Origin: a virus
Lineage: Duplodnaviria; Heunggongvirae; Uroviricota; Caudoviricetes
Strand: one strand, 5' to 3'
Length of the DNA stretch: 64,000 nucleotides
Virus record (IMG/VR): IMGVR_UViG_3300032516_002776
Location: 51,048 to 115,047 of that record
The position numbers and the translations under genes were made by a program. Below are positions 3,452-62,916 of the stretch, one piece after another. Each line of letters opens with the position of its first letter. Position 1 is the first letter of the stretch. The notes under the pieces are model-generated. The model searched no databases, was not told where the DNA came from, and was given only the letters and a program-made list of their open reading frames with translations.

Positions 3452-3467
3452 ATATAAATAGTTGACA
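3452..3467 (+). promoter_or_regulatory. T4 late-promoter-like TATAAATA box overlapping a TTGACA
   Basis: TATAAATA at 3452-3459 and TTGACA at 3462-3467, about 35 nt upstream of the QueC-like ATG. Confidence 0.3.
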
Positions 3468-3498
3468 ATTTCATTCAAGTTTGTTATTTTTATATGAT

Positions 3499-13370: not shown

Positions 13371-13372
13371 AA

Positions 13373-13999: not shown

Positions 14000-14002
14000 A
14001 GT

Positions 14003-14224: not shown

Positions 14225-14258
14225 ATATTTAATAATATAACATTTATTTGGTTGTTGG

Positions 14259-15152: not shown

Positions 15153-15153
15153 G

Positions 15154-16032: not shown

Positions 16033-16779
16033 TTAGTTTTTTGAAAGTTTGTCGAGCAAAGCAGATATGTTATTGTCTTGTTCGTTTATTTTGGTTATCA
16101 ATTTTTTTGTTTCTGTTGGTGCGTGGGTGACAGCTATGCGCAGAATATCCATCCAATTAACATTATTTTTCGTTCGAGCGGCTTCAATGTCATTTATAAT
16201 TTCTAAATCTGTTTCATTATTTTTCATATTATTTAAGTATTCTTTTATGTTTATATCCCAATTTTTTATGTTGGATGGTAAATCTACCAATTTGTGATAT
16301 GTCCCAATACCCTCTTGTTTTTTTGGGATGATATTACAATGTAATAACGCCTGATAATTTTCTTTGAATAAATTTTCAATTTCATTTCTTAATCTATTAT
16401 ATGTTTTACGGAAAGTGTTTTCGCTTTCTTCGAATATTATTTTCTTTTGAACTAATATGTCTCCTGTATCTATACCCCTGTCTAAAATATGTATAGTAAC
16501 TCCCGCCGGAGTAGATTCGTAAAATGACCAAAAATTAGGATTCGTGCCTCTATTATATGGTAAATAACTTATATGTAAATTAATTATTTTATTTTTAAAT
16601 TGTGAAATTACATCTTCTTTTATAATATGTTTATATCCATAACTTATAATAAAATCAAAGTTTTTAGATTCTTCTGGGGTTATTTTATCTTTTCGCTGAA
16701 CTATATTGTAATCATGGTCTCGCAAAAACTTTATAAGGCAAGTTTCGGATTCATTGTAACCTAAAAATAATATTTTCAC
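16033..16779 (-). CDS. formyltransferase (sugar N-formyltransferase candidate)
   Basis: NLHISYLPYNRGTNP matches the formyl_transf motif HxSLLPxxRG. It uses a GTG start overlapping the upstream stop (GTGA). Confidence 0.6.
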   Translation of the reverse strand: MKILFLGYNESETCLIKFLRDHDYNIVQRKDKITPEESKNFDFIISYGYKHIIKEDVISQFKNKIINLHISYLPYNRGTNPNFWSFYESTPAGVTIHILDRGIDTGDILVQKKIIFEESENTFRKTYNRLRNEIENLFKENYQALLHCNIIPKKQEGIGTYHKLVDLPSNIKNWDINIKEYLNNMKNNETDLEIINDIEAARTKNNVNWMDILRIAVTHAPTETKKLITKINEQDNNISALLDKLSKN

Positions 16780-36266: not shown

Positions 36267-38789
36267 ATGTATCAAAATGTATTTCATGACAAAAGAAATG
36301 AAGTTGTCCATATCTTTGATGATGTAGCTGGCCATGTTAAAATACCAACATCACAATTAAACTTTGCTTATAAAAGAAAAAGCGGTGGTAAGTATCGTTC
36401 AATCTATGGTGACGAACTTGAAAGAGTTACCAATTTTAATCCCAGTGACCAAAGCTTATTTGAAGCAGATGTACCTATAACAACCCGAGCGTTAATTGAG
36501 GGTTATTATGATTGTGATGAAATTTCTATTGGCCATACCGTTCTTATATTAGACATTGAAACAAATAGTGAAGGTGGTTTTCCTGATTTAGAAACCGCTG
36601 ACCAAGCCATTACCGCCATTTCATTCTATGATAAAACTACACAAAAATATTCTTGCTTTGTCATAGATGCAGAAAACAAAGTCAAAGATAGAACCGATAT
36701 TGAATTGCGAACATTTTCCGACGAAGAATCTCTATTAGAAGCATTTTTGAATGCATGGGAAAGCATAAGACCTTCAATAGTAACAGGTTGGAACTCTTCT
36801 GGCTTTGATATGGTTTATCTTTATACAAGAATTAAAAGAGTATTAGGTAATCAATGTGCAAGATTGTCACCAATAGGAATTGCGTATGTTAATCCCCATT
36901 ATAAAGAATTGACTTGTGCTGGAGTTTGTATAGCGTTAGATTATATTGATTTATACAAAAGATATAGTGGTGTTAGAAAAGCATCATATACACTTGGAAA
37001 TGTTGGAAAAGAAGAAGTAAAGATAAACAAAGTCCAATATGAAGGAAATTTGAGTACTCTGTATAAACTAGACATTAATAAATTTATTGAATACAACTTA
37101 ACCGATGTTGAAATTGTTGTTGAGTTAGACAAGAAATTCAATTACATTGACCAAGCCCGTGAAATTTGTCATTTCTGTCATGTCCCTTATGAATACTATG
37201 CGGTCCCATCGCGATTCTTAGAAGGTGCGGTATTAACCTATCTCAAGAGGAATAAATTGGTTGCTTCAAATAAGCCAATTAACGGCAGAGAAGAATATGA
37301 GACTAGAATAAAAGAAAACGAAGAGGGTTTTACGGGTGCTTATGTAAAAGACCCTATTCCGGGAAAATACAATTGGGTTTATGATTTAGATATGCAATCT
37401 CTATATCCAAGTATTATTCAAAGCTTGAATATTTCGCCGGAAACGCTTGTTGGTACAATTGAAAATTGGGATGGCAATGCGTATGTTAAAAATGAAATCA
37501 GAACGATAAAGTTAAACAAAGTAGAATTTTCCGTTGATGAATTTAAAAAGATGTTAGAAGAAAAAAATTGTTCGGTTGGTTCTAACGGGTCGGTTTATAC
37601 GCTTAGTAAGCGGGGGATAATGCCTATTATCATTGAAAAGTGGATTAAAGAACGAATTGAGACAAGAAAAGAAGCAAAGCGTGAATCAGATAGTGGTAAT
37701 AAAGACAGATATGAAGTATTAAATCGAAAGCAAGTTACTCTTAAAATTTTAGCTAATTCAATATACGGCTGTTTGGGTTTGCCTATCTGGCGATGGTATA
37801 ATAAGGATAATGCGGAAGCGACAACGATTACTGGTCAAGTATTGATTCAATCCGCTGGTAAAATTGTCAATCAATATTATAGAAATATAACAAAAGATGA
37901 TAAAGATTATGTCATCTATTGTGATACCGACTCATTATTTGCTTCAGTATTACCCATTATAGATTTATTAAGACCCCATATTAATAAAGCTGACACAACG
38001 GAAATGATAAAAGCTACATCAGAAATTGCGGGGGATGTCCAAAATTATATTAATGGGATATTAAATGTACTCTCAAAGAAAATGTTTAATGTAACCGAGC
38101 ATACATTCTTCATAAAGAAAGAAATGATTGCGGAGACGGCAATATGGCTTGCTAAAAAACGATATGTCCAATGGATTGTTAATAGGGGTGGAATTACCTG
38201 TGATGAAATGGCAGTCACGGGAATTGATACAGTCCGGACAAGCTTTCCACCGAAATTTAGTTCATTTATGATTGGTGTTATGGAACAAATATTGAAAAAT
38301 AAAACAGAACATGATATCAATGAAATGATTTTGAATTTTGAAGAGAATTTGAATTCGCTTTCGATTTTCGATGGTGCAAAATCAACTTCGGTAAAATTTA
38401 CATCCATGGACCAATTAAAAGAATATACATCGAAAAATAGAAAACCATTTGAAATTATAAAAGGCTCTCCCGCTCAAGTTAAAGCTGCTCTATATTATAA
38501 CGATTTGCTTAAACATTGGAAATTAGATAAGATGGTTGAACCGATTTATAATGGACAGAAAATAAGATACATTTATTTGAAAGACAATGAATTTGGAGTG
38601 GATAATATTGCACTTAAAGCGGATGGAACAGACCCAAAGCAAATGTTGGATTTCTGTAACAAATATATTGACCGCCGCAAAATGTATGAAGCAGAATTAA
38701 AAAGTAAATTAAAGGATTTTTATAGTGTTCTTTCTTGGAGTTATCCAAGTTTAGAAACAAGAAAAGCAGAGGAGTTTTTTGAACTCTAA
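36267..38789 (+). CDS. gp43: DNA polymerase, family B, T4 gp43-like
   Basis: Exo I LILDIETNS. Pol motif A DLDMQSLYPSIIQSLNISPETL is nearly identical to T4 gp43 DLTSLYPSIIRQVNISPETI. Motif B KILANSIYGCLG. Motif C YCDTDS. Confidence 0.85.
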   Translation: MYQNVFHDKRNEVVHIFDDVAGHVKIPTSQLNFAYKRKSGGKYRSIYGDELERVTNFNPSDQSLFEADVPITTRALIEGYYDCDEISIGHTVLILDIETNSEGGFPDLETADQAITAISFYDKTTQKYSCFVIDAENKVKDRTDIELRTFSDEESLLEAFLNAWESIRPSIVTGWNSSGFDMVYLYTRIKRVLGNQCARLSPIGIAYVNPHYKELTCAGVCIALDYIDLYKRYSGVRKASYTLGNVGKEEVKINKVQYEGNLSTLYKLDINKFIEYNLTDVEIVVELDKKFNYIDQAREICHFCHVPYEYYAVPSRFLEGAVLTYLKRNKLVASNKPINGREEYETRIKENEEGFTGAYVKDPIPGKYNWVYDLDMQSLYPSIIQSLNISPETLVGTIENWDGNAYVKNEIRTIKLNKVEFSVDEFKKMLEEKNCSVGSNGSVYTLSKRGIMPIIIEKWIKERIETRKEAKRESDSGNKDRYEVLNRKQVTLKILANSIYGCLGLPIWRWYNKDNAEATTITGQVLIQSAGKIVNQYYRNITKDDKDYVIYCDTDSLFASVLPIIDLLRPHINKADTTEMIKATSEIAGDVQNYINGILNVLSKKMFNVTEHTFFIKKEMIAETAIWLAKKRYVQWIVNRGGITCDEMAVTGIDTVRTSFPPKFSSFMIGVMEQILKNKTEHDINEMILNFEENLNSLSIFDGAKSTSVKFTSMDQLKEYTSKNRKPFEIIKGSPAQVKAALYYNDLLKHWKLDKMVEPIYNGQKIRYIYLKDNEFGVDNIALKADGTDPKQMLDFCNKYIDRRKMYEAELKSKLKDFYSVLSWSYPSLETRKAEEFFEL

Positions 38790-39433: not shown

Positions 39434-40237
39434 ATGATTGTCAAATCCACCGACAATTTATTGGGACTTGAGTTAATCTTTAATACTCATTATAGCAAAA
39501 TAATGCCAAGATTGACTAAGTATTATCTTGGTGCTTATGAAAACAATAAATTAGTGGGGGTTTTAACTTTGGGGTGGGGTACTCGACCAATTCATACGAT
39601 TAAAAAGCTATTTCCATCACTGCGGACAAAAGATTATCTGGAAATTGGCAAGATGTGTATGTTAGAGGAAATGCCTAAAAATTCTGAATCCCAATTTCTT
39701 TCTTCTGCGATAGAATGGCTAAAGAAAAATGACCCCGCCCCAAAAATACTTTTCACTTGGGCCGATGGAATATTAGGAAAGCCTGGTTATGTATATCAAG
39801 CAGCAAATTTTCTATATGGCGGATTTATATGGACAGACCTGTATATTACTGACAAGGGCGAAAAAGTACACCCTCGAACAAGTCAAGGTTTAACGGATAA
39901 GGGCGATAAAATTTGTGGCCACAGACCTACAAAGTCCTATTTAATTAAAAACGGATGGAGTCATTACAAAGGAAAGCAATTTCGGTATATTTATTTTTTG
40001 TGCAATAAGATAGAAAAGAAAAAATTATTAAAAGAATCAGTAGAAATATGGGGCAATAATTATCCAAAAAATAAAGATATAGAGTGGCAAAAGCAAGATT
40101 TGACAACGGGCGACTGGGTATCAGTGCCGAAGATGTTTTATGACCCAGCAATAACTACAATGGCTAATAAGAAAGCAATGTCTAATAAAAATAAAATGGT
40201 AGGATTGAAAACCTCCAGACAATTCTTCGACATATGA
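39434..40237 (+). CDS. Mom-like (GNAT-fold) DNA-modification acyltransferase candidate, family B paralog 2
   Basis: It shares HYS...P, YYLGAYENNKLVGVLTLGWGTRP, W.L...E.S.F.S and YVYQAANFLYGG with the 7645..8352 product. Confidence 0.4.
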   Translation: MIVKSTDNLLGLELIFNTHYSKIMPRLTKYYLGAYENNKLVGVLTLGWGTRPIHTIKKLFPSLRTKDYLEIGKMCMLEEMPKNSESQFLSSAIEWLKKNDPAPKILFTWADGILGKPGYVYQAANFLYGGFIWTDLYITDKGEKVHPRTSQGLTDKGDKICGHRPTKSYLIKNGWSHYKGKQFRYIYFLCNKIEKKKLLKESVEIWGNNYPKNKDIEWQKQDLTTGDWVSVPKMFYDPAITTMANKKAMSNKNKMVGLKTSRQFFDI

Positions 40238-47713: not shown

Positions 47714-47902
47714 ATGCCATATGGTCCATGTATTCTGTGCGGAGCAACTAATTACCCATCCTCCTTTGGCGGCCCGCTGATTTGTCCTTCTTGTGATTGT
47801 GGAAATCCTCCACAGCAAAAACAAGAATATTTTTCCTTGTTTCCTGAAGCGAAATCAGATAGAATAATAGAGTTATTAGAGCAAATTAAAGATAAACTAT
47901 GA
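47714..47902 (+). CDS. hypothetical Zn-ribbon protein
   Basis: CILCG...CPSCDCG. Confidence 0.35.
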   Translation: MPYGPCILCGATNYPSSFGGPLICPSCDCGNPPQQKQEYFSLFPEAKSDRIIELLEQIKDKL

Positions 47903-48858
47903 ATCATTTTGAGATAGAAGAACATGCAGAGGCAGAAAGTCAACACACTATATTTGTAGAAAAATATCGTCCATCTAAATTGGAAGATTATGTTGGAGAC
48001 AAGGTATTTAAAGCAACATTACAATCTTTTATTGATAAGAAAGACATACCACACTTATTGTTTTATAATTCAAGTCCGGGCACAGGTAAGACTGCTGCTG
48101 CAAAGATACTTGTAAAGAATATTCCTTGTGATTATTTGTATCTTAATGCATCCGATGAAAATGGAATTGAAACAGTACGAACAAAAATTAAAGGTTTTGC
48201 TTCATCTGCTGGTTTTTATCCTCTTAAAATTGTTATATTAGACGAATGTGACCAGATTACGCCAGAAGGGCAGGGGGCACTTCGTAATTTGATTGAAACA
48301 TTCTCTTTACATACAAGATTTATTTTAACTTGTAATTATATGGAGAAAATGATACCGCCGATTGTTTCAAGGTGTCAGACGCATAAAGTTGAATCACCAA
48401 CAAAGAAAGAAGTAGCATTATTAGTTAAAAGTATATTGGATAAGGAAAGTATTAAGTATACCGCAGAAGATTTAGCATACATTGTAAACACTTATTATCC
48501 TGATATGCGAAAGGTTATTAATTTTGCTCAACAAAGTGTTGTTGAAAGTCAATTGATTATTAATCGACATAATATTGTTGAAACCGACACCAAATTGAAA
48601 GTCTTGGAATTGTTAAAGACAGCAATTAGCAATCCAACAACATTTAATACAATTCGACAATTGATTGCTGATGCTGATATAAGGTTTTATGATGAATATT
48701 ATAAATTCTTATACGATAAGGTTGGAGAATTTGCGAAAGGTAAAGATGTCTTAGCAATTTTGACTATTGCTGAATATTTGTATCAATCATCGTTGGTAGT
48801 TGATAAAGAGATTACATTTATGGCTTGCATAGCAAGACTTATTAAGGAATTAAAATGA
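47899..48858 (+). CDS. gp44: clamp loader ATPase subunit, T4 gp44/RFC-like
   Basis: Walker A SPGTGKT, Walker B ILDECD, and an SRC motif (VSRCQT). Confidence 0.75.
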   Translation: MNHFEIEEHAEAESQHTIFVEKYRPSKLEDYVGDKVFKATLQSFIDKKDIPHLLFYNSSPGTGKTAAAKILVKNIPCDYLYLNASDENGIETVRTKIKGFASSAGFYPLKIVILDECDQITPEGQGALRNLIETFSLHTRFILTCNYMEKMIPPIVSRCQTHKVESPTKKEVALLVKSILDKESIKYTAEDLAYIVNTYYPDMRKVINFAQQSVVESQLIINRHNIVETDTKLKVLELLKTAISNPTTFNTIRQLIADADIRFYDEYYKFLYDKVGEFAKGKDVLAILTIAEYLYQSSLVVDKEITFMACIARLIKELK

Positions 48859-50500: not shown

Positions 50501-51486
50501 ATTTTAACCAAGGATTAAATTATAATAATATTGTTTTGACGCCAAATTTTTCGACATTACCGAGCAGAAGTCTTGCGGGTACATCTTTAATTTTTGGTAA
50601 TAAAGTATTTGAATTACCTATTTGTCCGGCCAATATGGTTTGTTGTATCAGCACAGAACTTGCCTATTGGTTGAGCGAGCATAATTATTTTTATGTAATG
50701 CACCGTTTTGATGGTGAAACTAATAAGAAAGATTTGCGTTGGTTCATTGAAAAGGCTAATACGGAAATGTGGCATTGTATTAGTATTAGTATTGGAGTTC
50801 AAGAAGAAGATTATGAATTATTGTGGTGGATTAATGTACGAAACCTTCGAGTGGATTTTATTACGATAGATATTTCTCATGGCCACTGTTTAAAAATGAA
50901 GGAAATGTTAGAGTTTCTTAATAAAGAAATTAAATTTAAAAATAAAACATTTGTTATAGCTGGCAATATTGGCACGCGAGAAGCGGTTAGTGATTTAGAA
51001 ATTTGGGGCGCAGACGCAACTAAAGTAGGATTAGCCTTTGGAAAAGCTTGTATAACTAAGAACAAAACGGGATTTGCTTCTCCAATGTTTTCTACTATTT
51101 TATTATGCTCTCAAAATTCTAAAAAACCCATTATCGCTGATGGTTCAATTAGTGAAAATGGGGATATAACAAAGGCATTAGTGGCTGGGGCAACAATGGT
51201 TATGGCGGGGAATATATTTGCGGCTTGTGTTGATAGTCCCGCCGAAAGTATTTATTCTGAAAATGGCAAACACATTGTTTCTAAAAAATATTTTGGTTCG
51301 GCATCTAAACGCAGTGGAAAAACTAAAAATATTGAAGGAACAGAAGTTATAATTGAATGTAATGATATGACTTACAATGAAAAATTAGAAGAAATTAAGC
51401 AAGATTTACAATCAAGCTTATCGTTTACTGGCCATAGTAATAAACTTGAAGACTTAAAAAGAGTGGAATGGAAAATTTTACAATGA
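50497..51486 (+). CDS. guaC: GMP reductase (IMPDH/GuaC family)
   Basis: It aligns along its length with E. coli GuaC: LNYNNIVLTPNFSTLPSRS against FKDVLIRPKRSTLKSRS, IDISHGH against IDVANGY, and the catalytic-Cys block GLAFGKACITKNKTGFASP against GIGPGSVCTTRVKTGVGYP. Confidence 0.7.
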   Translation: MNFNQGLNYNNIVLTPNFSTLPSRSLAGTSLIFGNKVFELPICPANMVCCISTELAYWLSEHNYFYVMHRFDGETNKKDLRWFIEKANTEMWHCISISIGVQEEDYELLWWINVRNLRVDFITIDISHGHCLKMKEMLEFLNKEIKFKNKTFVIAGNIGTREAVSDLEIWGADATKVGLAFGKACITKNKTGFASPMFSTILLCSQNSKKPIIADGSISENGDITKALVAGATMVMAGNIFAACVDSPAESIYSENGKHIVSKKYFGSASKRSGKTKNIEGTEVIIECNDMTYNEKLEEIKQDLQSSLSFTGHSNKLEDLKRVEWKILQ

Positions 51487-52025
51487 AAAACATTTTAAAC
51501 AGAAATAGAGTATACCTTGTCGGTCAAATGCAATACATCAAAGATGGTTCTGTTTGGCGTGATTATGTCGAAGCAGAATTAAAAAAGATGGGTGTAATTG
51601 TATTTAATCCATATAATCATCCATTTATCAATTCCGTGACGGAGGATAACAATGCAACGGCAACATTAAAGAGTCTTATCGCTGAAGGGAAATATGATGA
51701 ATGTGCTGAAATTATGCGAAAGATTCGTGGCGAAGATTTACGTGTCGTTGACATTGCTGATTTTATATTTTGCTATATAGACCCGCTTAAACCGACCTGT
51801 GGGGCGTGGGAAGAAGTTTTCACGGCGAATCGCGCTAAAAAGCCTATATTTTTTGTAGCCGAAGGCGGAAAGGATGTTTGTCCTCTCTGGCTTTATGGTA
51901 CAATTCCCCATAAATATATGTATAATTCCATAGATGATGCTTTGCAAATGCTTTGGGATATTAACAGCGGTGCAAAGCCTATTGATTCTTCCCGTTGGCG
52001 CATTCTCCGACCAGAATTCCTATAA
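51483..52025 (+). CDS. nucleoside 2-deoxyribosyltransferase/DNPH1-like protein
   Basis: VYLVGQM and the DIADFIFCYID...CGAWEEVFTANRAKKPIF block resemble the NDT/Rcl family (GxAWExG). The track start is 51468, and the ATG at 51483 (ATGA overlap) is preferred. Confidence 0.4.
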   Translation: MKNILNRNRVYLVGQMQYIKDGSVWRDYVEAELKKMGVIVFNPYNHPFINSVTEDNNATATLKSLIAEGKYDECAEIMRKIRGEDLRVVDIADFIFCYIDPLKPTCGAWEEVFTANRAKKPIFFVAEGGKDVCPLWLYGTIPHKYMYNSIDDALQMLWDINSGAKPIDSSRWRILRPEFL

Positions 52026-52242: not shown

Positions 52243-52368
52243 ACAATTCCACACAAATATATGTATGATTCCATTGATGATGTTTTGAATGTGCTTTGTG
52301 ATATTAATAACGGAACGCGTGAAATAGATTCTTCTAGATGGCGCCTTCTCCGAGAAGAATTTAGATAA
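52243..52368 (+). pseudogene. diverged duplicate of the 3' end of 51483..52025 (gene fragment)
   Basis: It translates to TIPHKYMYDSIDDVLNVLCDINNGTREIDSSRWRLLREEFR*. The gene tail reads TIPHKYMYNSIDDALQMLWDINSGAKPIDSSRWRILRPEFL*. The frame is closed upstream by TAA at 52216, and there is no start codon. Confidence 0.6.
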
Positions 52369-52411: not shown

Positions 52412-53050
52412 ATGGCAAAACATGACTATAAAAAAATAGCTAAAAGACAATTTTTAAAAGAATATGGTGATATTGGTGGCGGAATGTATGGCGGTGGTGC
52501 TGCCGTTTCTGCTGGTTTTGTAAATCCTGGAATGGGTACTTTTAGCTCTCCTGATGCACGACAAAATCTGTCGGCTTTTGCAAATAACCATCCAACCATG
52601 CAATATCCTGTTGGACAACATAAAGTTGATTGGTTTAATAGTGATAAAGCTACAGGTCCATCCGAAGAAGATGTCCAAGAATTAAAAAACAAAGTTACTC
52701 CCGATGAGATTCTTTTAGGGATAGAATACGAACTTAAAAGACAATTTCATAAGAATAAAAGTAACGCAAAAGAAATCGTTGTACAGAATTTAAAAAAAGA
52801 TCCGAAATATTATTCTAGTTTACATATGATGCAGATGAGCGATGAAAGAGTTAATGAGGAGAAAAAAATTGAAGATATGAAAGATAAAGCAAATATTAAC
52901 GATAAAGGTGTAAATGTTGATGAGGTTAAGAAAATTGTAGAAGAAATGCTTTCAAAAAGAAAGAAAACACAAGTACCAATTGATGTAAAAATCGTAACTG
53001 CTTATAATGATAGCATTGATAGAAAAACCAAAAAGCGTTGGACAGTTTAA
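52412..53050 (+). CDS. hypothetical protein with Gly-rich N-terminus
   Basis: 212 aa. It carries the motif ILLGIEYELK...AKEIVVQNLKKDPKYY, which recurs in the next gene. Confidence 0.4.
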   Translation: MAKHDYKKIAKRQFLKEYGDIGGGMYGGGAAVSAGFVNPGMGTFSSPDARQNLSAFANNHPTMQYPVGQHKVDWFNSDKATGPSEEDVQELKNKVTPDEILLGIEYELKRQFHKNKSNAKEIVVQNLKKDPKYYSSLHMMQMSDERVNEEKKIEDMKDKANINDKGVNVDEVKKIVEEMLSKRKKTQVPIDVKIVTAYNDSIDRKTKKRWTV

Positions 53051-53063
53051 TAAACAGATTAAT

Positions 53064-54773
53064 ATGAATAAGTCGAAATATCATGTTGAGCTTTTACCAG
53101 CAGAAGAATATTATAAAAATAAAGAAAAGGTAGGTGCTCATGCTATTGGTTGGGTTGTTTTAGTCAATGGTCAACCTCATCATGAAACTACGGACGGATT
53201 AAGGGGGAAAAAATTAGCAATGGATTTTGCTGAACAATTCGGATGGTCGGAAAAATTAAATGAATCAGACTGGAAACAAGTTGGAATTGGTGAACCAAGT
53301 GATCCCATTATTGGTAATCCTGCTATGAAAGGCCGCCGTTGGCAAATAGACCCATACGGCAGTGGTAAATCTTTTCCAAAGATAAATAAATCCGCGAAAG
53401 CGTCCAAATCACTTACTTATGACAAATTTTATAGTAAACTTAAAGAAGTTATAGGGTCTGACACCGAAGATGTATTTTCTAGTCAAAGCAAAGCGGCAGG
53501 TATAGAAGAATTTACTACATTTTTTCAGGTTGCTAATAAAACTGACATCGAAAAATTTAATTTGTTGTGGGATAATGGTCACACAAGAAAAGCGTGGAGA
53601 TTTATTTTATCTATTTTAAAAGCAGCTGGCAAATTAAACCTTCATGAAATTGTAGAGCCAGCAAAAGAAGAAGATGTGGATCCAAAAGAATTGAAAATGG
53701 GAATCGAATCGGAAATGGAGCATACTAATAGTGAAGGAGAAGCTAAAAACATCGCATTAACACATTTGGCTGAGCATCCTGATTATTATTCTAGAATAAA
53801 ATCCGTTGGAATTCTTGAACTTATAACAGAAGATGTAAAAAGTGAGGACAATATGAAATTTAAAGACTATTACAGAGAAGAACTCAAGGAAGCCATTGAA
53901 AATGATAAGATTAAAAATCAATGCCCCTGTGGTTGTACACCAGAAGACATGTGTGATAACGCAGATGAATGTTTGTGTGAATGCTCAACATGTGGTTGTG
54001 GAAAGCGCAATACCGAACATAGTCTTGATGAAAAGAAGTGGATTCAAGCCGCTGTCCATCCTTCCCGAAAAGGTATGCTCTCGGGAAAATCAGTCGCTGA
54101 CCTTGAAAAGATGAAAGGAAATTTAAAAAAGAGAAATACTCCGAAGAAAGAAAAGGGCGAAAAAGTTCCTCACAAGAATAAAGTAGCAATGTCGCAGATT
54201 AATTTTGCTTTGCGCGCTAAAAAGCACAAACTAACTGAAGCGGATAATTCCAACCTCTTTATGAAAAAAGGTCAAAAACTTTTTGCTTACTTTACAAGAG
54301 TCAAGAAGTTTCTTGAAGTAACATTACTCAGGGACAGTGATAAAGAAGGTTGGGCATTAGCTGAATTTATAAATCATAGGTCTGTTGTGGTAAATGTTCG
54401 AACTAAAATAGGCTATGTAGAAGATCCAGGCCGTGATACATTGCCATATGGTGTCGCAGAAGCTCTTGCTGAAGCGAATCGTGATAGTAAATTTGGCGCA
54501 CCAGCAAAAAAGGGTTCAACAATAAAGGGTAAATCGGGGCCTGGTCAAGTTGCTGAAGATAGACAAGAAACGCCTGATGAAAAGGAGATTTGTCCAGAAT
54601 GTGGGAAAAAGGAAGTCACAGTGACCTTTGAACAGGGTTATCAGGAATATCCAGGCGCATCACCTCAGGCACCTACTACGTTCCGTGAATGTGGCGCGTG
54701 TGGTTGGGATGAACTCACTAAGGGAAAATTCGATATGGACAACGCAATCGGCTTGGACGGTCAGCGGGCATAA
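53064..54773 (+). CDS. hypothetical large protein with Cys cluster
   Basis: ATG 53064 is preferred over the track start 53007. It carries LKMGIESEMEHT...ALTHLAEHPDYY, the same motif as the upstream gene, plus CPCGCTPEDMCDNADECLCECSTCGCG and a C-terminal Zn ribbon. Confidence 0.45.
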   Translation: MNKSKYHVELLPAEEYYKNKEKVGAHAIGWVVLVNGQPHHETTDGLRGKKLAMDFAEQFGWSEKLNESDWKQVGIGEPSDPIIGNPAMKGRRWQIDPYGSGKSFPKINKSAKASKSLTYDKFYSKLKEVIGSDTEDVFSSQSKAAGIEEFTTFFQVANKTDIEKFNLLWDNGHTRKAWRFILSILKAAGKLNLHEIVEPAKEEDVDPKELKMGIESEMEHTNSEGEAKNIALTHLAEHPDYYSRIKSVGILELITEDVKSEDNMKFKDYYREELKEAIENDKIKNQCPCGCTPEDMCDNADECLCECSTCGCGKRNTEHSLDEKKWIQAAVHPSRKGMLSGKSVADLEKMKGNLKKRNTPKKEKGEKVPHKNKVAMSQINFALRAKKHKLTEADNSNLFMKKGQKLFAYFTRVKKFLEVTLLRDSDKEGWALAEFINHRSVVVNVRTKIGYVEDPGRDTLPYGVAEALAEANRDSKFGAPAKKGSTIKGKSGPGQVAEDRQETPDEKEICPECGKKEVTVTFEQGYQEYPGASPQAPTTFRECGACGWDELTKGKFDMDNAIGLDGQRA

Positions 54774-54776
54774 TAA

Positions 54777-57023
54777 ATGAAATATTCAGATTTTTACAAT
54801 TTAAAAGAAGCGCCGATTGATGATAATTCCGATGACTTACGGAAGCCTACTGGTGCTCCTCTAGCCATTGGTGAGCATGAGTCTGGAGGTCCCATAAGTT
54901 TAGATGTAAACGATCCAATTCCATGTGAATCTACCTATGATGAAAAAGTTCCTGGAAAAGTTCTTTGGCCTGACGATCCAACTCTTGATGAATCTGAATT
55001 TCCTGCTAGAAGTTTATATCCAAATGCTAAAGGCGACGAAAAAATTCGCGTTAATAATTTAAAACTAGCAAAAGAGTTAATTACTATTCTTGATCAATTT
55101 AAAGGTATTCGTGGCGCAAAGACAAAATTATATCAGTTGAAATTAAATGGTATGCCAATAACATCCACTGTAATTAAATCTATATATTTTGGTCTTAGAC
55201 AATTTTCCGATGCAGAAACCATTGCAGTAAAGAAACAACTATTATCTAATCTTAAAAAGATATATAATAAATCAATAAGTGATTGTTATTCTAAGGATGA
55301 TCTTTTAGAAACTTTAACATTAAAGAAATATGAGAATGATTTGGTTGTAGTATCTGATTTAGAAGGCAGAAAAGAACAATCTGCAGAAACATTTAGACAT
55401 AAGAATGAATTAAAGAAGGCGGGGTTTAGATGGGATGGAAAACTAAATTCGTGGGTTGTATCGACAGAAAGATTTCAAGATGCACAAAAAACCATTGCCA
55501 AAATAAACAAAAAGCCTCTTGAAGTAATTATAAGCACTCTTGATGATCTTCCAGAATTTGTATTAAATGCTGATAATATATCAAAAAAACAAGAATTGGC
55601 TGGACAAATTGAATCATTTGTGACCGATTTAAGTAATGAAGTAGATGAAGCTGCCGCCTCTGAGAAAGTTCGAGCATTTTTTGAGTTTAATCGAAGATTT
55701 AGAAATTATAGTATAGTTAATACCTTTTTAATTTATTTACAAAAGAATAATGCTACAAGAGTTGCTGGTTTTCATGCCTGGCGCGTAAAATTTCATAGAA
55801 ATGTAAAGAAGGGTGCAAAAGCAATATCAATTTTTGCTCCACAAACATATAAAGAGCGTGATGATAAAGTTGAAGATGGCGATCTTGACGCAGAAGTTAG
55901 ACAACGCCGTGTCACGCGCTTTATAGCAGTAAATGTTTTTGATGTATCCGACACAGAACCGATTGATGCAAGCGGTGAGCTTCCCGTAGAACCACAATGG
56001 TATGGAGAAAACACTCCGAGTGACATTGCGGAAAAAATATACACTTATAGTGAAGAATTATCAAAGGTATTGGGTATTAATATAACAAGAGATGTATCGC
56101 ATCGAGGAGAACGAGGATTTTCAGCTGGTGACCATATTAATATAACAAGTGGTGTTGAGGGGGTTGGTAAAGCTGCAACGATGGTTCATGAAATCGCACA
56201 CGAATTGATGCATAAGAGTGAAACTTCATTATTTTATGTGGGAACAGATACAACACGGGAACAAAAAGAATTACAAGCAGAATCTATATCTTATGTAGTA
56301 TTAAGGCATTACAATTTACCTGTACAACACCAATCTACTTATTTGGCATTATGGAAGGCTGATAAAAGTGCGGTGCAATCCAATCTCGAATTGATTAAAA
56401 AGGTATCCAATTTTATTATTGATGAAATTGACAAAATAGCTGAAAAGGATGAAAAGGCTGCTATTAATAAACCAATTGGCACTAAACCGATTGATGTTGA
56501 TAAGCAGACTTTAACGGAAGGAGCAAGGGGAATGGCTCTTGCTGGATTAGTTGGTGCTAGTTCTATGATTTCTTATCCACAAACAATGTTTGCTAGTGGA
56601 AATGTTCCAACTTCCATGGCATCTAATGAAACGCGTGGTATACGAAATAACAATCCTGGAAATATAAAAACATCAAAAGATAAATGGCAAGGCCAGACTG
56701 GAAACGATGCGGTATTTGTTAAATTTGATTCTCCTGAGAGTGGTATAAGAGCTATTGCAAAGATTTTAAAAACATATCAAGCAAAATATAATATTCATAG
56801 TATTGTTGATATAATTGCTCGATGGGCACCACAAAAAGAAAATAGAACAGATAAATATACTAATTTTGTGGCTCATAAAGTAGGTTTAGATAAAAATGTA
56901 GGAATTGATATTCTTAAAGACAAAGATATGCTAAAAAAGATTGTAAAAGCAATCATTGAATTTGAAAATGGTAAAAACCCTTATTCAGATTCTATTATTA
57001 CCTCTGGAATCAATAAATCTTAA
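54777..57023 (+). CDS. polyvalent-like protein: ArdC-N-like ssDNA-binding domain + HExxH metallopeptidase + C-terminal NNPGN-motif domain
   Basis: YSIVNTFLIYLQKNNATRVAGFHAWRV...KGAKAISIFAP resembles the ArdC N-terminal domain. MVHEIAHELMH is an HExxH metallopeptidase motif. The C-terminal GIRNNNPGNIK...W.GQ block is unidentified. Confidence 0.4.
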   Translation: MKYSDFYNLKEAPIDDNSDDLRKPTGAPLAIGEHESGGPISLDVNDPIPCESTYDEKVPGKVLWPDDPTLDESEFPARSLYPNAKGDEKIRVNNLKLAKELITILDQFKGIRGAKTKLYQLKLNGMPITSTVIKSIYFGLRQFSDAETIAVKKQLLSNLKKIYNKSISDCYSKDDLLETLTLKKYENDLVVVSDLEGRKEQSAETFRHKNELKKAGFRWDGKLNSWVVSTERFQDAQKTIAKINKKPLEVIISTLDDLPEFVLNADNISKKQELAGQIESFVTDLSNEVDEAAASEKVRAFFEFNRRFRNYSIVNTFLIYLQKNNATRVAGFHAWRVKFHRNVKKGAKAISIFAPQTYKERDDKVEDGDLDAEVRQRRVTRFIAVNVFDVSDTEPIDASGELPVEPQWYGENTPSDIAEKIYTYSEELSKVLGINITRDVSHRGERGFSAGDHINITSGVEGVGKAATMVHEIAHELMHKSETSLFYVGTDTTREQKELQAESISYVVLRHYNLPVQHQSTYLALWKADKSAVQSNLELIKKVSNFIIDEIDKIAEKDEKAAINKPIGTKPIDVDKQTLTEGARGMALAGLVGASSMISYPQTMFASGNVPTSMASNETRGIRNNNPGNIKTSKDKWQGQTGNDAVFVKFDSPESGIRAIAKILKTYQAKYNIHSIVDIIARWAPQKENRTDKYTNFVAHKVGLDKNVGIDILKDKDMLKKIVKAIIEFENGKNPYSDSIITSGINKS

Positions 57024-57098: not shown

Positions 57099-57398
57099 AT
57101 GAAATATTATTTAGTAGATACAACACAATCAACAGACCCACAGTTTTTTAATAATGTGGCAGACCTCGTTAAACATCTCGAAGGTACAGTTCAACGAAAG
57201 TTTAGACTAACACGAAAACAATACATGCAAAATCTAATTGATTTAGGTTATGGCTATGATGATCCCGAAGGCGCTACATTTGCTTCAAGCATGGGTGAAA
57301 CTTTCTCTATGGGTTCTTATCAAGACGGAAGATTAATCCGTTCAAACATACATGAAACCAGTAGAAACACCAAGTATCAGAATGAATATGGAAATTAA
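57099..57398 (+). CDS. hypothetical protein
   Basis: The track start 57063 is TTG, so the ATG at 57099 (MKYYLVD...) is used. TTGTTA-N17-TATATA boxes lie just upstream. Confidence 0.35.
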   Translation: MKYYLVDTTQSTDPQFFNNVADLVKHLEGTVQRKFRLTRKQYMQNLIDLGYGYDDPEGATFASSMGETFSMGSYQDGRLIRSNIHETSRNTKYQNEYGN

Positions 57399-57414: not shown

Positions 57415-59019
57415 ATGATTAATTTAAATGTTAAATGGAGCGAGCCATGCAAAATAAAAACAAAGTATGGTGAGCAATATCGAAGAGAATGGTTAATACC
57501 TGCGGGGTATCGTTCTATTTTTTTTGATTATTGGCGTTTCAATTCTTTTAAATTAAAAGATAAGGGTTATGGGGTTTATAAGAAAGATAAAGATTGGTTT
57601 TTGACAGAAAGCAAAGTTGCACTGCATCATTTTGAAGAATATAAAGATACGGCACCATCCTTAGAAGAATCTGATTTTATCTTGTTACCAAAAGATGTTA
57701 AAGATGTAACGGGATTAAGACCTTGGCAAATTAATTCAGTTGGTAAAATATGTGCTGCATTAGAAAAGTGGGATTGTGCTATAGATGGTTCTGATTTAGG
57801 AATTGGCAAGACATATATTGCTTGTGCAGTTGCGCGTGAGCTAAATATGGATATTCTTGTGGTTTGTCCCAAAGCGGTAATGGAAACATGGCGCAGAGTA
57901 GTTTGTAATCATTTTAAAATGAAGAGTAAGTTGAAAGGAATTATTAACTATGAAATGCTTCGAATAGGCAAAGCAGAATCGGATATTGCCTCTTACATTA
58001 AAAACAAAAAGACCCATAAAGAAGAATTTATTTGGAAAATACCCAAAGAGACATTAATTATTTGGGATGAAAGCCAAAAATTAAAAGGTAGTAATACTCA
58101 GAATAGTAAAACTTGTTTGCATGCTTTAAAACAAGAATATAAAATGTTATTTTGTAGTGCAACTAATGCCACAAATCCTTTGGAACTAAGAACGGTGGGA
58201 ATGTGTTTACAATTGTTTAAAAATGGAAAGCAATACTATCAATGGTTATATTCTCATGGAGTTGATCGGGGTAGATTTGGATTACAATTTAACAATAGCA
58301 AAGATGTATTGAAAAAATTACATAAAGATATATTTATTGATAGGGGTGTTCGACTTACAAGAGATACCATTCCTAATTTTCCCGAAAGTGAAATTATTGC
58401 CGAATGTTATAATATGGAAGAAGAATCCACCAAACAAATTAATGCTCACTATGATGAAATGTATAAAGAGCTTGCGAAGCTTAAAAGAAAAGAAAAATCC
58501 GATAAGGCAAGTGAATTAACTGCAATTTTGCGGGCACGACAGAAGATAGAATTGGTTAAAGTACCATTATTTATAGATATGATAGAAGAAGGTTTAGAAA
58601 ATGGTATGAGTGTAGTAGTATTTGTTAATTTTACAGAAACCATCAATGCACTTGCAAAAAGATTGAATACAAATTGTATAGTTAATGGTTTAGTGTCAGA
58701 TGTTAAACGCATACAAAATGTTGATAATTTTCAAGATGACAAAGAACGCGTTATTCTTGTAAATATACAGGCCGGCGGTTCTGGACTTAGTTTACATGAT
58801 ATTAATGGAAAATATCCACGCCTTAGTTTGTTATCACCCAGCTATAGTGCAATATGTATGCGGCAAGCAACAGGTAGAGTTTGGCGTGACAGTGCAAAAA
58901 GTAAAAGTGTTCAAAAAATTGTATTTGTTGCTGATACTGTTGAGGAAAAAGTTTGTGAATCTGTAAATGCTAAATTAAAAAATTTAGATTTGTTAAATGA
59001 CGGAGATTTATCTTTATGA
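57415..59019 (+). CDS. SF2 helicase (UvsW/SNF2-like)
   Basis: LRPWQ, Walker A GIGKT, DExx box IIWDESQ, and motif VI QATGRVWR. Confidence 0.6.
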   Translation: MINLNVKWSEPCKIKTKYGEQYRREWLIPAGYRSIFFDYWRFNSFKLKDKGYGVYKKDKDWFLTESKVALHHFEEYKDTAPSLEESDFILLPKDVKDVTGLRPWQINSVGKICAALEKWDCAIDGSDLGIGKTYIACAVARELNMDILVVCPKAVMETWRRVVCNHFKMKSKLKGIINYEMLRIGKAESDIASYIKNKKTHKEEFIWKIPKETLIIWDESQKLKGSNTQNSKTCLHALKQEYKMLFCSATNATNPLELRTVGMCLQLFKNGKQYYQWLYSHGVDRGRFGLQFNNSKDVLKKLHKDIFIDRGVRLTRDTIPNFPESEIIAECYNMEEESTKQINAHYDEMYKELAKLKRKEKSDKASELTAILRARQKIELVKVPLFIDMIEEGLENGMSVVVFVNFTETINALAKRLNTNCIVNGLVSDVKRIQNVDNFQDDKERVILVNIQAGGSGLSLHDINGKYPRLSLLSPSYSAICMRQATGRVWRDSAKSKSVQKIVFVADTVEEKVCESVNAKLKNLDLLNDGDLSL

Positions 59020-60098: not shown

Positions 60099-60608
60099 AT
60101 GAATAACAAAATAACACATTTATTAAATTCAATGGAAATCTTGGATACATTCAATATTTCAAAAAAGGTTTCCAATACGGACATAACCAAATTGAAAAAT
60201 AAAATGATTGGTGATTGTTCTACACGATTTGAGTTGCAAGAATTATTAAAAGAAGAATTGATTAATGAAACAGATAAATATCTGCAAACGCATTACATTC
60301 CTGGTTTATTAACACCTAATAAAGGTCCAAATCGACCAAATAATCAGCCATCAAGGCCTACACAAAAGCCAAAGAAGCGGATTAATGTAAAAAGTGAAAA
60401 ATTTGTAAGAGTTAAATTCAATGCTGAAAACTTAGCAAAAACATTAAATGAAAATAAATTAGATAAAGAAGAAATGTTGTTTTTTGTTATATCTTTGGTG
60501 AATATGTTAGAATTAAGTGAGGATGATTTTGATGCGTTTCATAAAAAAATGGAGAGCGACGACGACTTTGAAGAAATGGACGACGACGACTCTCAACAAA
60601 TTAAATAA
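60099..60608 (+). CDS. hypothetical protein with acidic C-terminus
   Basis: 169 aa. Confidence 0.4.
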   Translation: MNNKITHLLNSMEILDTFNISKKVSNTDITKLKNKMIGDCSTRFELQELLKEELINETDKYLQTHYIPGLLTPNKGPNRPNNQPSRPTQKPKKRINVKSEKFVRVKFNAENLAKTLNENKLDKEEMLFFVISLVNMLELSEDDFDAFHKKMESDDDFEEMDDDDSQQIK

Positions 60609-60624
60609 AAACAAAAGAGGTTAT

Positions 60625-61788
60625 ATGAAAAATGTGTTACTTACACAGCAAATTATTTCTGTGTGCAAAAAACAAAATAAACCTGTTGTATTCATAACAG
60701 GCGTAACAGGTCAGGATGGTAGTTATATGGTAGATTACTTATTAAAGAATTATCCAGACAGATTCTTAATAGTTTGTGGAGTAAGGCGTAATAGTTCTTT
60801 AAATGATATAAACATAAAGCATGTTTCTGATAAAGATTATTTTTTGACATATTTTGACCTAACTGATTCTGGTAATATAAATTCGCTAATAGAAAATATT
60901 AAACCTGCTTATTTTATAAATTTTGGCGGCCAAAGTTTTGTCGGAACCAGTTGGGATTTAGCAAAGCAAACATTTGAAACAAACGCAATTTCAATGATTT
61001 CCATATTGGATGCAATAAGAAAATATTCACCGACTACAAAATTTTATCAGGCGGGAAGTTCAGAAGAATTTGGAAATGTAGAATATAGTCCACAAGATGA
61101 AAAACACCCATTAAAACCACGCAGTCCTTATGGAGCAAGTAAAGCCGCAGCACGATTATTGCTAAAAACTTACAGAGAAAGTTACAATTTATATGCGGTT
61201 GCTGGTTGGTTGTTTAATCACGAATCGGAACGGCGTGGACCTGAATTTGTTACTAGAAAAATAACAATAGGTGTAGCAAAAATTGATAAAGATATAAAAG
61301 CGGGCAATACCATCACCACCATTAAACTTGGAAATATAAACACCCAAAGAGACTGGTCACACGCTGAAGATATGGTAGATGGTGTCTGGAGAATGTTAAA
61401 TCAAGAAGTATATAATAAAGAACTGGGTTGGATTGGAGAATTTGATGGAATTGAAACTTTAATTTATGATGCATCTAAACACATCAAAGATTATGTTCTT
61501 GGTAGTGGTGAAACACATACAATTAAAGAATTTGTAAAATTAGCATTTCAAGCAGCAGGTTATCTTGGAAATTGGCATGAATTTACAGAGGGAGAAGAAG
61601 TATTTGTGTTAGCAAGTAATGATATGATTGTAGTGGAAGTTGATAAAAAATTATATCGTCCTGCCGAAGTAAATCATCTAATTGCTGATAACACTTTAGC
61701 AAAAGAAGAATTGAGATGGAAGCCACAAGTTTCATTTAAAGAATTAGTAAGTAGAATGGTTATTAACGATATAAACCTTATAAAATAA
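60625..61788 (+). CDS. gmd: GDP-mannose 4,6-dehydratase
   Basis: ITGVTGQDGSYMVDYLL and NHESERRGPEFVTRKIT are near-identical to the bacterial GMD signatures. The ATG at 60625 with an AAGAGG RBS is preferred over the track start 60517. Confidence 0.75.
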   Translation: MKNVLLTQQIISVCKKQNKPVVFITGVTGQDGSYMVDYLLKNYPDRFLIVCGVRRNSSLNDINIKHVSDKDYFLTYFDLTDSGNINSLIENIKPAYFINFGGQSFVGTSWDLAKQTFETNAISMISILDAIRKYSPTTKFYQAGSSEEFGNVEYSPQDEKHPLKPRSPYGASKAAARLLLKTYRESYNLYAVAGWLFNHESERRGPEFVTRKITIGVAKIDKDIKAGNTITTIKLGNINTQRDWSHAEDMVDGVWRMLNQEVYNKELGWIGEFDGIETLIYDASKHIKDYVLGSGETHTIKEFVKLAFQAAGYLGNWHEFTEGEEVFVLASNDMIVVEVDKKLYRPAEVNHLIADNTLAKEELRWKPQVSFKELVSRMVINDINLIK

Positions 61789-61841: not shown

Positions 61842-62420
61842 ATGAAAAAAATGATGTTACTAGTTGCAATTTGTATAATAATGTTTTCAAGTGTTATTAT
61901 GGCCGATACAAATTCTCCAGAAGTTGTTGCAAGTACCAATACCACCGATACTGCCAAAATAGCTGTGCCAGGCCTTGGTGATTTATTTAAGATATATTTT
62001 GATTTGGCTTTAGACTACATCGCAACAAATGGAGTTATGAGCGTTGGTTATGGTATAAGTGCGGATTCACACATACACGGTACATTAGTATCTACATCTT
62101 TAAAGCTTGATCAACTATCATTTAATATACATAAAACATTAGTAACGCCTGGAATAGAAAACGGTGTATTATTTAATAGTAAGCCGGGTGGAGTTGATTA
62201 TCATTTAGTGGGTGTTAATGTGTTAATACATTGGTTTCGAGCACCACCATGGGTTGAAACTCTTCAAAGTAAACCGGTTCTTAAATCTGTAATATTTCCT
62301 AAATTTAGTGAATGGTATTTTCAACCAAGTGCTGACTATCCTTCCGATAAATTTGTAAATGGACAATTTTATTCTAAATATATTATTATTGGTATAAAAG
62401 GCGGGTGGAAATTTAACTAA
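61842..62420 (+). CDS. secreted protein (signal peptide)
   Basis: MKKMMLLVAICIIMFSSVIMA with a probable cleavage site before DTN. Confidence 0.45.
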   Translation: MKKMMLLVAICIIMFSSVIMADTNSPEVVASTNTTDTAKIAVPGLGDLFKIYFDLALDYIATNGVMSVGYGISADSHIHGTLVSTSLKLDQLSFNIHKTLVTPGIENGVLFNSKPGGVDYHLVGVNVLIHWFRAPPWVETLQSKPVLKSVIFPKFSEWYFQPSADYPSDKFVNGQFYSKYIIIGIKGGWKFN

Positions 62421-62421
62421 A

Positions 62422-62916
62422 ATGTTATTATCTGAAATACATCCGAGACAATGCGATATAGTGTTTGTGCATTCTTACCACATACCAAGCGCGACAGTTC
62501 GGTGGTGGACAAATAGTTTATTTGACCATGTTGAGATTGTCGTGGATGATGCTACATCAATTGGTTCAAGGCCAAGGGGAGGCGTACAAATACATCCTTT
62601 TTCTGTTTTTGATAATAGAAAAATATGCGATTGGACTTTAATGCGTTATAGTGGAAATTTGAGTAAAAATACAAAGAATGGTATTATTAATTTTGCAAAA
62701 TCTCAGATTGGTAAACCCTATGATTGGTATGGAATTTTAGGCATTGCTATTAAGAAAAACATAGAAAAAGAAAGCGAATGGTTTTGTAGTGAATTTGTAA
62801 ATACTGCATTTTTCAAGAATAATGTAACTCTAATACCAAGAAAATCATCAGGCTTTGTTGTACCAGAATTATTATATCAATCCCTTGCTTTAGACCTAAT
62901 ATACACTACATTTTAA
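62422..62916 (+). CDS. putative permuted papain-fold (YiiX/NlpC-like) peptidase
   Basis: His (HVEIVVDD) precedes Cys (EWFCSEFV), with PYDWYGILGIA between. The assignment is weak. Confidence 0.3.
   Translation: MLLSEIHPRQCDIVFVHSYHIPSATVRWWTNSLFDHVEIVVDDATSIGSRPRGGVQIHPFSVFDNRKICDWTLMRYSGNLSKNTKNGIINFAKSQIGKPYDWYGILGIAIKKNIEKESEWFCSEFVNTAFFKNNVTLIPRKSSGFVVPELLYQSLALDLIYTTF

Follow-up and report, generated by a model that had tools for sequence, protein, structure and literature searches.

A modular phage cassette of ArdC-type, peptidoglycan hydrolase and DUF5661 domains: a possible counter-defence locus

Introduction

Polyvalent proteins are assembled around the hub domains MPTase (metallopeptidase), ArdC-N, SNF2 and lysozyme, to which many accessory domains are added (Iyer et al. 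2017, PMC5512222). ArdC-N is rare in the phage-type members, and a lysozyme fusion is taken as a sign of injection (PMC5512222); in the jumbo-phage survey by Iyer et al., ArdC-like MPTases are mentioned only briefly. Here we describe a locus that varies this known theme in a 64,000-nucleotide (nt) stretch of viral DNA (positions 51,048 to 115,047 of IMG/VR record IMGVR_UViG_3300032516_002776; hereafter the window, whose numbering is used throughout). Three consecutive plus-strand genes, P1 (52412..53050, 212 amino acids (aa)), P2 (53064..54773, 569 aa) and P3 (54777..57023, 748 aa), are followed on the same strand by a helicase gene (57415..59019). Our tentative reading is that this locus, in a large phage with replication genes of the T4 type, is a modular cassette for counter-defence.

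Two experimentally described proteins provide the closest comparisons for P3. ArdC of plasmid R388 is a gluzincin, a class in which an HExxH motif is followed further along the chain by a glutamate helix, (E,H)xx(A,F,T,S,G); its metal ligands are H201, H205 and E229, and the closest structures to its protease domain are Spartan and IrrE (PMC7213743). The second is the endolysin of Hafnia phage Enc34, the catalytic domain of which (7Q47) was shown to be muralytic and was proposed to act as a GH73/GH23-like glucosaminidase through Trp79, Tyr95 and Glu131 (PMC8943055).

The ArdC core of P3

A first-pass annotation of the window had placed an ArdC-N-like segment and an HExxH zinc peptidase motif in P3 and proposed an ArdC-N/MPTase relationship, all of which was borne out by profile and fold searches. 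The ArdC-N single-stranded DNA (ssDNA)-binding domain occupies aa 294-381 (55656..55919, plus strand) and matched Pfam PF08401 (ArdcN) with E = 4.6e-8 and 33.7 bits against a gathering score of 22.6. The same family was present in 112 of 120 ArdC-core homologues among the matches listed. It is followed at 56187..56282 (plus strand) by the gluzincin active site H471-E472-x-x-H475 and the glutamate helix E498-x-x-A501; H471, E472, H475 and E498xxA501 were invariant in an alignment of 64 homologues. The PHROG family phrog_7245, 'anti-restriction protein', matched P3 aa 300-559 (E = 9e-17) over profile positions 42-314 of 324.

The core (aa 165-585) was modelled with AlphaFold2 (AF2) at a predicted local distance difference test score (pLDDT) of 87. 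A Foldseek search of the PDB with this model returned R388 ArdC structures as the top three matches (E = 2e-7 to 2e-5, approximately 299 aligned columns), with 6I89 (E = 2e-7) and 6SNA (E = 1e-5) among them. Judged by these profile and model comparisons, the P3 core is a genuine ArdC. As in R388 ArdC (6I89/6SNA), an ArdC-N ssDNA-binding domain is followed by a gluzincin metalloprotease with HExxH and ExxA motifs. R388 ArdC is encoded on an IncW conjugative plasmid, whereas P3 is encoded by a phage, carries approximately 290 aa of extra N-terminal sequence and adds a C-terminal hydrophobic linker and a peptidoglycan hydrolase. The N-terminal extension includes a small alpha/beta 'FRWD' domain (55314..55460, plus strand) supported by invariant columns and the AF2 model, with the signature 'ETFRxKNxLKxAGFRWD...W'. 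This domain lies 5' of ArdC-N in all homologues, and its comparison with Pfam gave a weak DUF5710 match alone (E = 0.1). Searches of viral contigs identified 293 proteins with an ArdC-like core at E ≤ 1e-5, and its presence at 52 IMG/VR loci, all on viral contigs, supports a phage origin.

A peptidoglycan hydrolase at the P3 C-terminus

The C-terminal part of P3 had been noted for a conserved GIRNNNPGN signature, assigned to no family and considered a possible new anti-defence module. The signature is present, starting at aa 621, and the domain that carries it (56631..57020, plus strand; PHA02564) belongs to the characterised Enc34-type muralytic domains (PMC8943055), so it is neither unnamed nor new. 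Comparison of the domain with the PDB using phmmer gave 9vvp_L (E = 9e-26) and 7q47 (E = 1.6e-15), and a profile search reached 7Q47 with E = 2.4e-19. The 9vvp match is a 1295-aa protein, 'Gp29', in a solved multi-chain entry; a literature search for PDB 9VVP found nothing. P3 residues W683, Y694 and E730 aligned to W80, Y96 and E132 of the 7Q47 chain, which correspond to W79, Y95 and E131 in the Enc34 paper. Based on these alignments, the P3 C-terminus is predicted to be an Enc34-type peptidoglycan glucosaminidase domain with its catalytic triad intact.

Several matches of this domain carry virion-related annotations. It matched phrog_873 (E = 7e-51), and phrog_2276, 'tape measure', aligned over the hydrophobic segment and the NNPGN domain together (aa 551-746). 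By tblastn the domain was found in 748 phage records, and the C-terminal-domain matches listed were mostly annotated as structural, head, virion or endolysin proteins. The homology to the Enc34 endolysin extends to the catalytic Trp/Tyr/Glu residues and the N-terminal RNNNPGN motif; the arrangement differs. The Enc34 gene is part of a lysis cassette, and its product starts with the catalytic domain and ends in a two-helix transmembrane domain. P3 instead has the domain at its C-terminus, following a 580-aa ArdC protein and a weakly hydrophobic segment, and no holin or spanin candidates were found near P3 in the window.

The segment between the two halves of P3 is a Gly/Ala/Ser/Thr-rich linker, GARGMALAGLVGASSMISYPQTMFAS (aa 582-607; 56520..56597, plus strand). 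These four residues account for 18 of 37 positions, the maximum Kyte-Doolittle mean over 19 residues is 0.95, and the linker ends in a signal-peptidase-like T-x-F-A motif. Its composition resembles that of signal-anchor-release (SAR) domains, but it lies 580 aa from the P3 N-terminus and is near-N-terminal in one related locus only (L004; L numbers denote loci and four-digit P numbers proteins of our comparison set). A perfect AAGGAG at 56518-56523 lies 8 nt before an in-frame ATG at 56532 (Met586), which opens the hydrophobic, signal-peptide-like segment, and a nested internal start for the hydrolase at Met586 is therefore possible from the sequence. This candidate was down-weighted, since P0001 and P0005 have no Met at this position, the E-G-A codons account for the hexamer and Shine-Dalgarno-like motifs are rare in the window (motifs of any kind at only about 12 of 62 gene starts). 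The fusion of ArdC to the NNPGN domain is kept in P0001, P0002 and P0005 at 37-59% identity and is thus not an assembly artefact.

P1 and P2 modules and their fusion partners

The first-pass annotation had also reported a sequence block shared by P1 and P2, EI/LxxGIExE...A.xI...L...DPxYY, which it could not name. The block was confirmed by BLASTP (P1 aa 95-137 against P2 aa 205-246, E = 4e-6), and the P2 copy proved to be Pfam DUF5661 (PF18905; E = 1.8e-9, 38.2 bits against a cut-off of 27). The P1 copy is divergent and lacks the conserved E-x-E-H-T and His/Glu residues of DUF5661. A Pfam search with it gave no DUF5661 match even at E ≤ 10, and the relation is based on pairwise BLASTP similarity and a phmmer match of the P1 block to a stand-alone DUF5661 protein (E = 2.2e-5).

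A chance occurrence of these motifs, or an ArdC-hydrolase fusion created by mis-assembly or a frameshift, would be the simplest alternative account of the locus, and the failure of the Pfam model to recognise the P1 copy could be cited in its favour. We regard it as barely conceivable and consider it refuted: the similarities are significant, identical DNA is present in two public assemblies (Joint Genome Institute (JGI) metagenome 3300035701 and the Logan assembly of SRR11719878), the fusion is conserved in the three relatives named above and the P1 family comprises 133 clusters.

P2 is a mosaic of small modules on the plus strand (the gene caller preferred an upstream ATG at 53007, giving 588 aa). 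In order, these are P2_N with 'GEPSDPIIG..KGRRWxIDP' (nt 53265-53390), module c (nt 53493-53642), DUF5661 (aa 205-246, nt 53676-53801), an internal 'MKFKDYY...LKEAIE' tag (nt 53853-53900), a Cys-rich segment (nt 53922-54002), a 'KKWIQ...KKHKL' module (nt 54033-54233) and a C-terminal CxxC...CxxC ribbon (nt 54591-54704). Only 11 homologues of P2 were found, each with a different subset of these modules, and a sister clade encodes P2_N and DUF5661 as separate small genes. In P1, a 'GTFSSPxxxQN' motif marks a segment rich in Gly (aa 19-56, nt 52466-52579), and the divergent helical block of DUF5661 type spans aa 95-137 (nt 52694-52822); P1 also matched phrog_1047, 'tail associated lysin'. P1 and P2 are mosaics around DUF5661-type three-helix modules. 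A tblastn search of both proteins against 50,697 phage records identified no cultured-phage relatives.

DUF5661 typically occurs as a stand-alone phage protein of 60-97 aa; the P2 copy is one module of a 569-aa mosaic. The domain was modelled with high confidence as a three-helix bundle (pLDDT 96). A structure search with this model gave no significant relatives of known function, fold matches placed the domain in giant-virus proteins as well, and a literature search on DUF5661 found no paper and no described function. Two stand-alone members, P0171 and P0204, have a clear N-terminal transmembrane helix, and some of the family may therefore be membrane-anchored. In Vibrio phage vB_VpaM_VPs20 (OP056089; L064 5341-6609), DUF5661 lies between an N-terminal DUF2213 domain, which we take to be prohead-protease-like, and a coiled-coil C-terminal part. 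The gene belongs to the head module, between the terminase and DUF2184 genes, and this phage offers a cultured system for the study of DUF5661.

An exhaustive search for the P1 module gave 133 representative clusters, the majority of them stand-alone. Giant HYR and type IX secretion system (T9SS) adhesins among the matches were discarded as spurious, reflecting low-complexity similarity to the Gly/Thr/Ser-rich part of P1. Where the module is fused, its partners are varied. It lies upstream of or is fused to ArdC in L003, L020-22, L031, L033, L035, L044 and L047-49, is joined to Mom in P0256, P0258, P0269 and L004 (5961-7607) and to an Acb1-like 2H phosphoesterase in P0285, P0311, P0361 and P0376, and also occurs with DUF5661. 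Mom, Acb1 and ArdC have known counter-defence functions. Because they are joined to Mom, Acb1-like and ArdC proteins, the P1 and DUF5661 modules probably belong to a counter-defence toolkit, and these partners are the strongest evidence for that assignment.

P0003 and P0361 provide a further instance of module exchange across different effectors. Both share one N-terminal module and leucine-rich-type repeats; P0003 carries ArdC, and P0361 an Acb1-like domain and P1.

Conservation of the cassette

Seven parts recur together in related loci, namely the P1 module, P2_N, DUF5661, ArdC, a peptidoglycan hydrolase, a 99-aa protein and an SNF2 helicase. In the window, the 99-aa protein 'small99' (57099..57398, plus strand) lies directly 5' of the helicase. 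The helicase itself (534 aa, plus strand), which had been annotated as superfamily 2 (SF2), was confirmed by Helicase_C (E = 2.8e-7, 31.2 bits against 23.5) and phrog_62 DNA helicase (E = 9e-47); SNF2-rel_dom matched below its cut-off (E = 8e-5, 22.3 bits against 24.9), and the gene is syntenic in relatives. The pair of small99 and helicase is kept in L003, L004, L020-22, L031, L033, L035, L044, L047 and L048.

The cassette was found in L003, L004, L020-22, L031, L033, L035, L044 and L047-49, with its parts split or fused to varying degrees. In L044 all are separate, in the order P1, P2_N, DUF5661, ArdC, hydrolase, 99-aa gene and helicase. The L020-type order is a P1-ArdC fusion, a small P2_N-like gene, a DUF5661 gene, the hydrolase, the 99-aa gene and the SNF2 helicase. 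L003 has P1, a DUF5661-ArdC fusion (P0006) and a lysozyme; L004 has a Mom-P1 fusion, P2_N, ArdC, a hydrolase and an intein-bearing helicase.

The hydrolase differs in family between loci. It is Enc34-type in the window, GH24 in L003, L031 and L044 and SleB-type Hydrolase_2 in L004, L020, L035 and L047. Every cassette hydrolase domain lies directly behind an Ala/Gly/Leu/Thr-rich hydrophobic stretch, and the P3 linker has a homologue in L004, which there precedes a SleB-type hydrolase in a separate 192-aa gene. Since three non-homologous enzymes occupy one position, the hydrolase module and the ArdC gene appear to have a conserved functional link.

A 316-aa protein is also conserved in the sister-clade cassettes (L020 12823-13773; also L021, L022, L031, L033, L035, L044 and L047-49). 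It combines a lipobox (LLLTSC) and a coiled coil with transmembrane helices at the C-terminus. Its gene lies between the hydrolase and the 99-aa/SNF2 pair, and its layout, as predicted from sequence, resembles that of a unimolecular spanin. No such gene is present in the window, L003 or L004.

This neighbour raises the question of lysis. The hydrophobic segment and hydrolase could form a signal-anchored or SAR-like endolysin that is normally encoded beside the ArdC gene and became fused to it in the lineage of the window, with nothing being injected. ArdC would then be cytoplasmic after early expression, and the C-terminal domain would be exported to bring about lysis from inside the cell, possibly freed by the adjoining protease. 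The spanin-like protein just 3' of the hydrolase, the SAR-like linker with its T-x-F-A end and the action of R388 ArdC, which is needed in the recipient and not the donor and does not require transfer (PMC7213743), all suggest that the hydrolase is perhaps a phage endolysin with ArdC acting from within. The Enc34 domain is moreover a proven endolysin catalytic domain, the L004 linker and hydrolase form a gene of their own, and the AAGGAG before Met586 would suit separate translation of this part. However, the hydrolases of most relatives have 80-450 aa of extra N-terminal sequence, and that of the window 580 aa. Such extensions are atypical for endolysins of phages infecting Gram-negative hosts and typical for virion-associated hydrolases. 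In addition, the window lacks holin and spanin candidates near P3, the spanin-like gene is missing from three of the cassette-bearing sequences, P0001 and P0005 lack the internal Met, Shine-Dalgarno sites are seldom used by this phage, and the ArdC-hydrolase fusion has been retained over considerable sequence divergence. On this evidence we consider a role confined to lysis unlikely, though it deserves serious attention.

A role in DNA metabolism is another alternative. The ArdC-like core could act as a DNA-dependent protease of the Spartan/SprT type, removing protein-DNA adducts or remodelling DNA during replication together with the SNF2 helicase, clamp loader and polymerase, with the DUF5661 and P1 modules as structural adaptors that have no defence role. 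The cassette lies among replication and nucleotide-metabolism genes, the Foldseek list for the P3 core also holds 6mdx (Spartan) and PprI, in line with the structural neighbours of R388 ArdC, and most ArdC-like core proteins are stand-alone proteins of approximately 415-440 aa that are very common in large phages without other cassette parts. This account leaves the recurrent fusion to or adjacency with peptidoglycan hydrolases unexplained, as well as the fusion of P1 to Mom and Acb1-like enzymes, and the best structural matches of the core are ArdC, not Spartan. We therefore judge it improbable compared with a counter-defence role.

Two further features were observed in these loci. Sister-clade cassettes carry a conserved 360-aa gene (L020 9181-10263; L031, L033, L035 and L047-49) with an 'HGDIDIVVV' motif that resembles nucleotidyltransferase-fold enzymes, with no counterpart in the window. 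The L004 region 9856-16278 has been invaded by mobile elements, including a DUF723 homing-endonuclease-like gene and an IS605 OrfB/TnpB gene, and its SNF2 helicase is interrupted by an intein (Hint and LAGLIDADG).

An N-terminal tag shared by cassette proteins

The T4 protein IPI is an injected anti-restriction protein. Within the T4 capsid targeting sequence (CTS), targeting depends on Tyr4 and Phe7, and cleavage is directed by an (I/L)xE site at residues 8 and 10 (PMC9026906). P3 starts with the peptide MKYSDFYNLKE (54777..54809, plus strand), which resembles T4 MKTYQEFIAE, as does the P0004 tag MKYKDFFILE. Among 436 Met-initiated candidates in the window, the tag pattern occurs only at the P3 start and at the internal Met of P2. 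Several unrelated cassette proteins open with M-[KT]-Y-x-[DE]-F-[FY] followed by (L/I/F)-x-E; in relatives the tag is found almost only at cassette gene starts, and the peptide also occurs at internal fusion junctions, where it is always preceded by Met.

Comparison with the N-termini of T4 IPII and IPIII (taken from NC_000866) revealed an aromatic residue, x-[D/E]-F and an (L/I)-x-E site in both cases, common to otherwise unrelated proteins. The likeness covers approximately 10 residues only, with a spacing that is off by one or two. The tag is a weak, merely suggestive CTS-like lead. If it were a T4-like capsid targeting and processing signal, with the P1 and DUF5661 modules as adaptors, interchangeable anti-defence enzymes (ArdC, Mom, Acb1-like phosphodiesterase and wall hydrolases) would be loaded into the capsids of large T4-like phages as a swappable injected arsenal. 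We consider this extended version speculative and rather improbable.

The tag was also considered as a part of DUF5661. This was rejected, as the strict pattern was found in only 3 of 120 stand-alone DUF5661 proteins. A looser pattern was enriched in the family (28 of 115 compared with 146 of 1855), an effect driven by one subfamily, 'MRNQYKILSEKY'.

Proposed function

The first-pass annotation had interpreted these genes as polyvalent proteins that act against host defence. The polyvalent-type counter-defence reading is supported, at the level of sequence, by domain content and fusion partners, together with the shuffling of modules; the families it had thought might be new were already catalogued. 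As in polyvalent proteins, unrelated activities are joined in one polypeptide, P3 combining ArdC-N DNA binding, a zincin protease and a lysozyme-type peptidoglycan hydrolase. The locus has three of the hub domains, ArdC-N, MPTase and SNF2, as well as new small accessory domains, and its domains are extensively shuffled among relatives. The differences are that P1 to P3 are short (212-748 aa) and form an ensemble over several adjacent genes with fusion and fission across lineages, that the accessory modules are DUF5661 and the P1 module, and that the cassette sits in a region of replication and DNA-modification genes, in contrast to the phage versions of polyvalent proteins, which lie among late and virion genes.

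In the counter-defence reading, the ArdC part would bind incoming or replicating phage DNA and blunt type I restriction as R388 ArdC does, and the protease would separate the fused modules or cleave host proteins. The P1 and DUF5661 modules would serve as common adaptors for various anti-defence enzymes, and the hydrophobic segment and hydrolase would place a wall-cutting domain across the inner membrane on the periplasmic side. Loading into the capsid and ejection would make wall breaching and DNA protection coincide, a polyvalent logic spread over several genes.

Packaging of P3 and its partners in the capsid, with release alongside the DNA, is in our view the likeliest of the readings, at somewhat less than even odds. 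Delivery in the virion is favoured by the mostly virion-related annotations of the NNPGN domain, the matches to phrog_2276 and phrog_1047, the position of DUF5661 in VPs20 and the CTS-like tag, and also by the long N-terminal parts of the hydrolase proteins. A literature search for ArdC in virion proteomes found none.

Several observations weigh against counter-defence by delivered proteins. The Foldseek TM-scores of the P3 core to R388 ArdC are low (0.26/0.37), because the two ArdC domains are oriented differently in the P3 model and in R388, and phmmer and a 9-sequence profile failed to reach the ArdC entries (6I89) in the PDB, the fold search alone doing so. The protease of R388 ArdC is dispensable for anti-restriction (PMC7213743); with expression in the recipient being sufficient, neither co-injection nor proteolysis is therefore needed for ArdC function. 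The linker hydropathy is too weak for a canonical transmembrane helix, and the sister-clade hydrolase lies two to three genes from the protein with the lipobox and C-terminal transmembrane helices, which suggests a lysis role. The CTS similarity is short, as described above, and a scan with the gp21-type protease of Microcystis phage Mel-JY01 gave 12 loci, none on a cassette-bearing contig. Finally, the genes of the window are concerned with replication and DNA modification (family-B DNA polymerase (PolB), clamp loader, Mom and QueC), with no virion genes among them.

What is most useful in this variation on the polyvalent theme is that it gives DUF5661 and the P1 module, both widespread in phages, a possible role that can be tested, as partners of counter-defence enzymes. 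The fusions of the P1 module to ArdC, Mom and Acb1-like proteins, and of DUF5661 to ArdC, suggest that they act as adaptors or regulators of such effectors. A phage ArdC tied to a wall-cutting enzyme is also unusual, and the partnership has outlasted a swap of the catalytic domain among three unrelated families. If the proteins are packaged, the locus would represent a T4-IPI-like injected anti-restriction system of large environmental phages, and its N-terminal tag could serve in mining and cargo loading. Without packaging, the locus would illustrate how polyvalent proteins arise or decay via fusion and fission of neighbouring genes.

Genomic context

The window has a G+C content of approximately 31%. 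It encodes a T4-type PolB (36267-38789) and a T4-type gp44-like clamp loader (47899-48858). The best cultured match of both was Mel-JY01 (40.5% identity for the polymerase), followed by T4-like cyanophages and jumbo phages, and the Mel-JY01 genome carries T4-type portal (gp20), gp21-type protease and gp23 capsid genes. Because of these T4-type replication genes and the T4-type gp20, gp21 and gp23 of its nearest cultured relative, the window is a portion of a large environmental T4-related phage.

The neighbours of P1 to P3 include the clamp loader and genes for GMP reductase-like and deoxyribosyltransferase-like proteins, the SNF2 helicase, an HNH protein and a GDP-mannose dehydratase. The 386-nt gap 5' of P1 contains a pseudogene fragment (52243-52362, plus strand) that copies the last 40 aa of the nucleoside deoxyribosyltransferase-like gene at 51468-52025 (72.5% identity, E = 2.6e-19). 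Searches for regulatory signals revealed no enrichment. Sigma-70-like promoter sites did not outnumber those in shuffled sequence, one terminator-like site was seen compared with 4.1 expected, and the T4 late-promoter box TATAAATA was seen 18 times compared with 18 expected, with none upstream of the cassette.

Other genes in the window point to modification of DNA and sugars. A stand-alone Mom-family gene is present at 39434-40237 (plus strand; Pfam E = 3.9e-48). At 2260-4239 (plus strand) a gene for a DruA-domain protein adjoins a QueC-like gene, and the pair may be a 7-deazaguanine-type DNA modification module. Glycosyltransferases and a class-III aminotransferase are among the genes of a contiguous minus-strand run of approximately 25 kb (9694-35203); with the GDP-mannose dehydratase (60517-61788) added, this run constitutes a large sugar-modification block by phage standards. 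Downstream of the cassette, a gene for a 192-aa protein with an N-terminal signal-like sequence (61842-62420, plus strand) lies just 5' of one for a YiiX/YaeF-type permuted papain-like enzyme (62422-62916, plus strand; NCBIfam E = 6.5e-7), which may have the envelope as its target.

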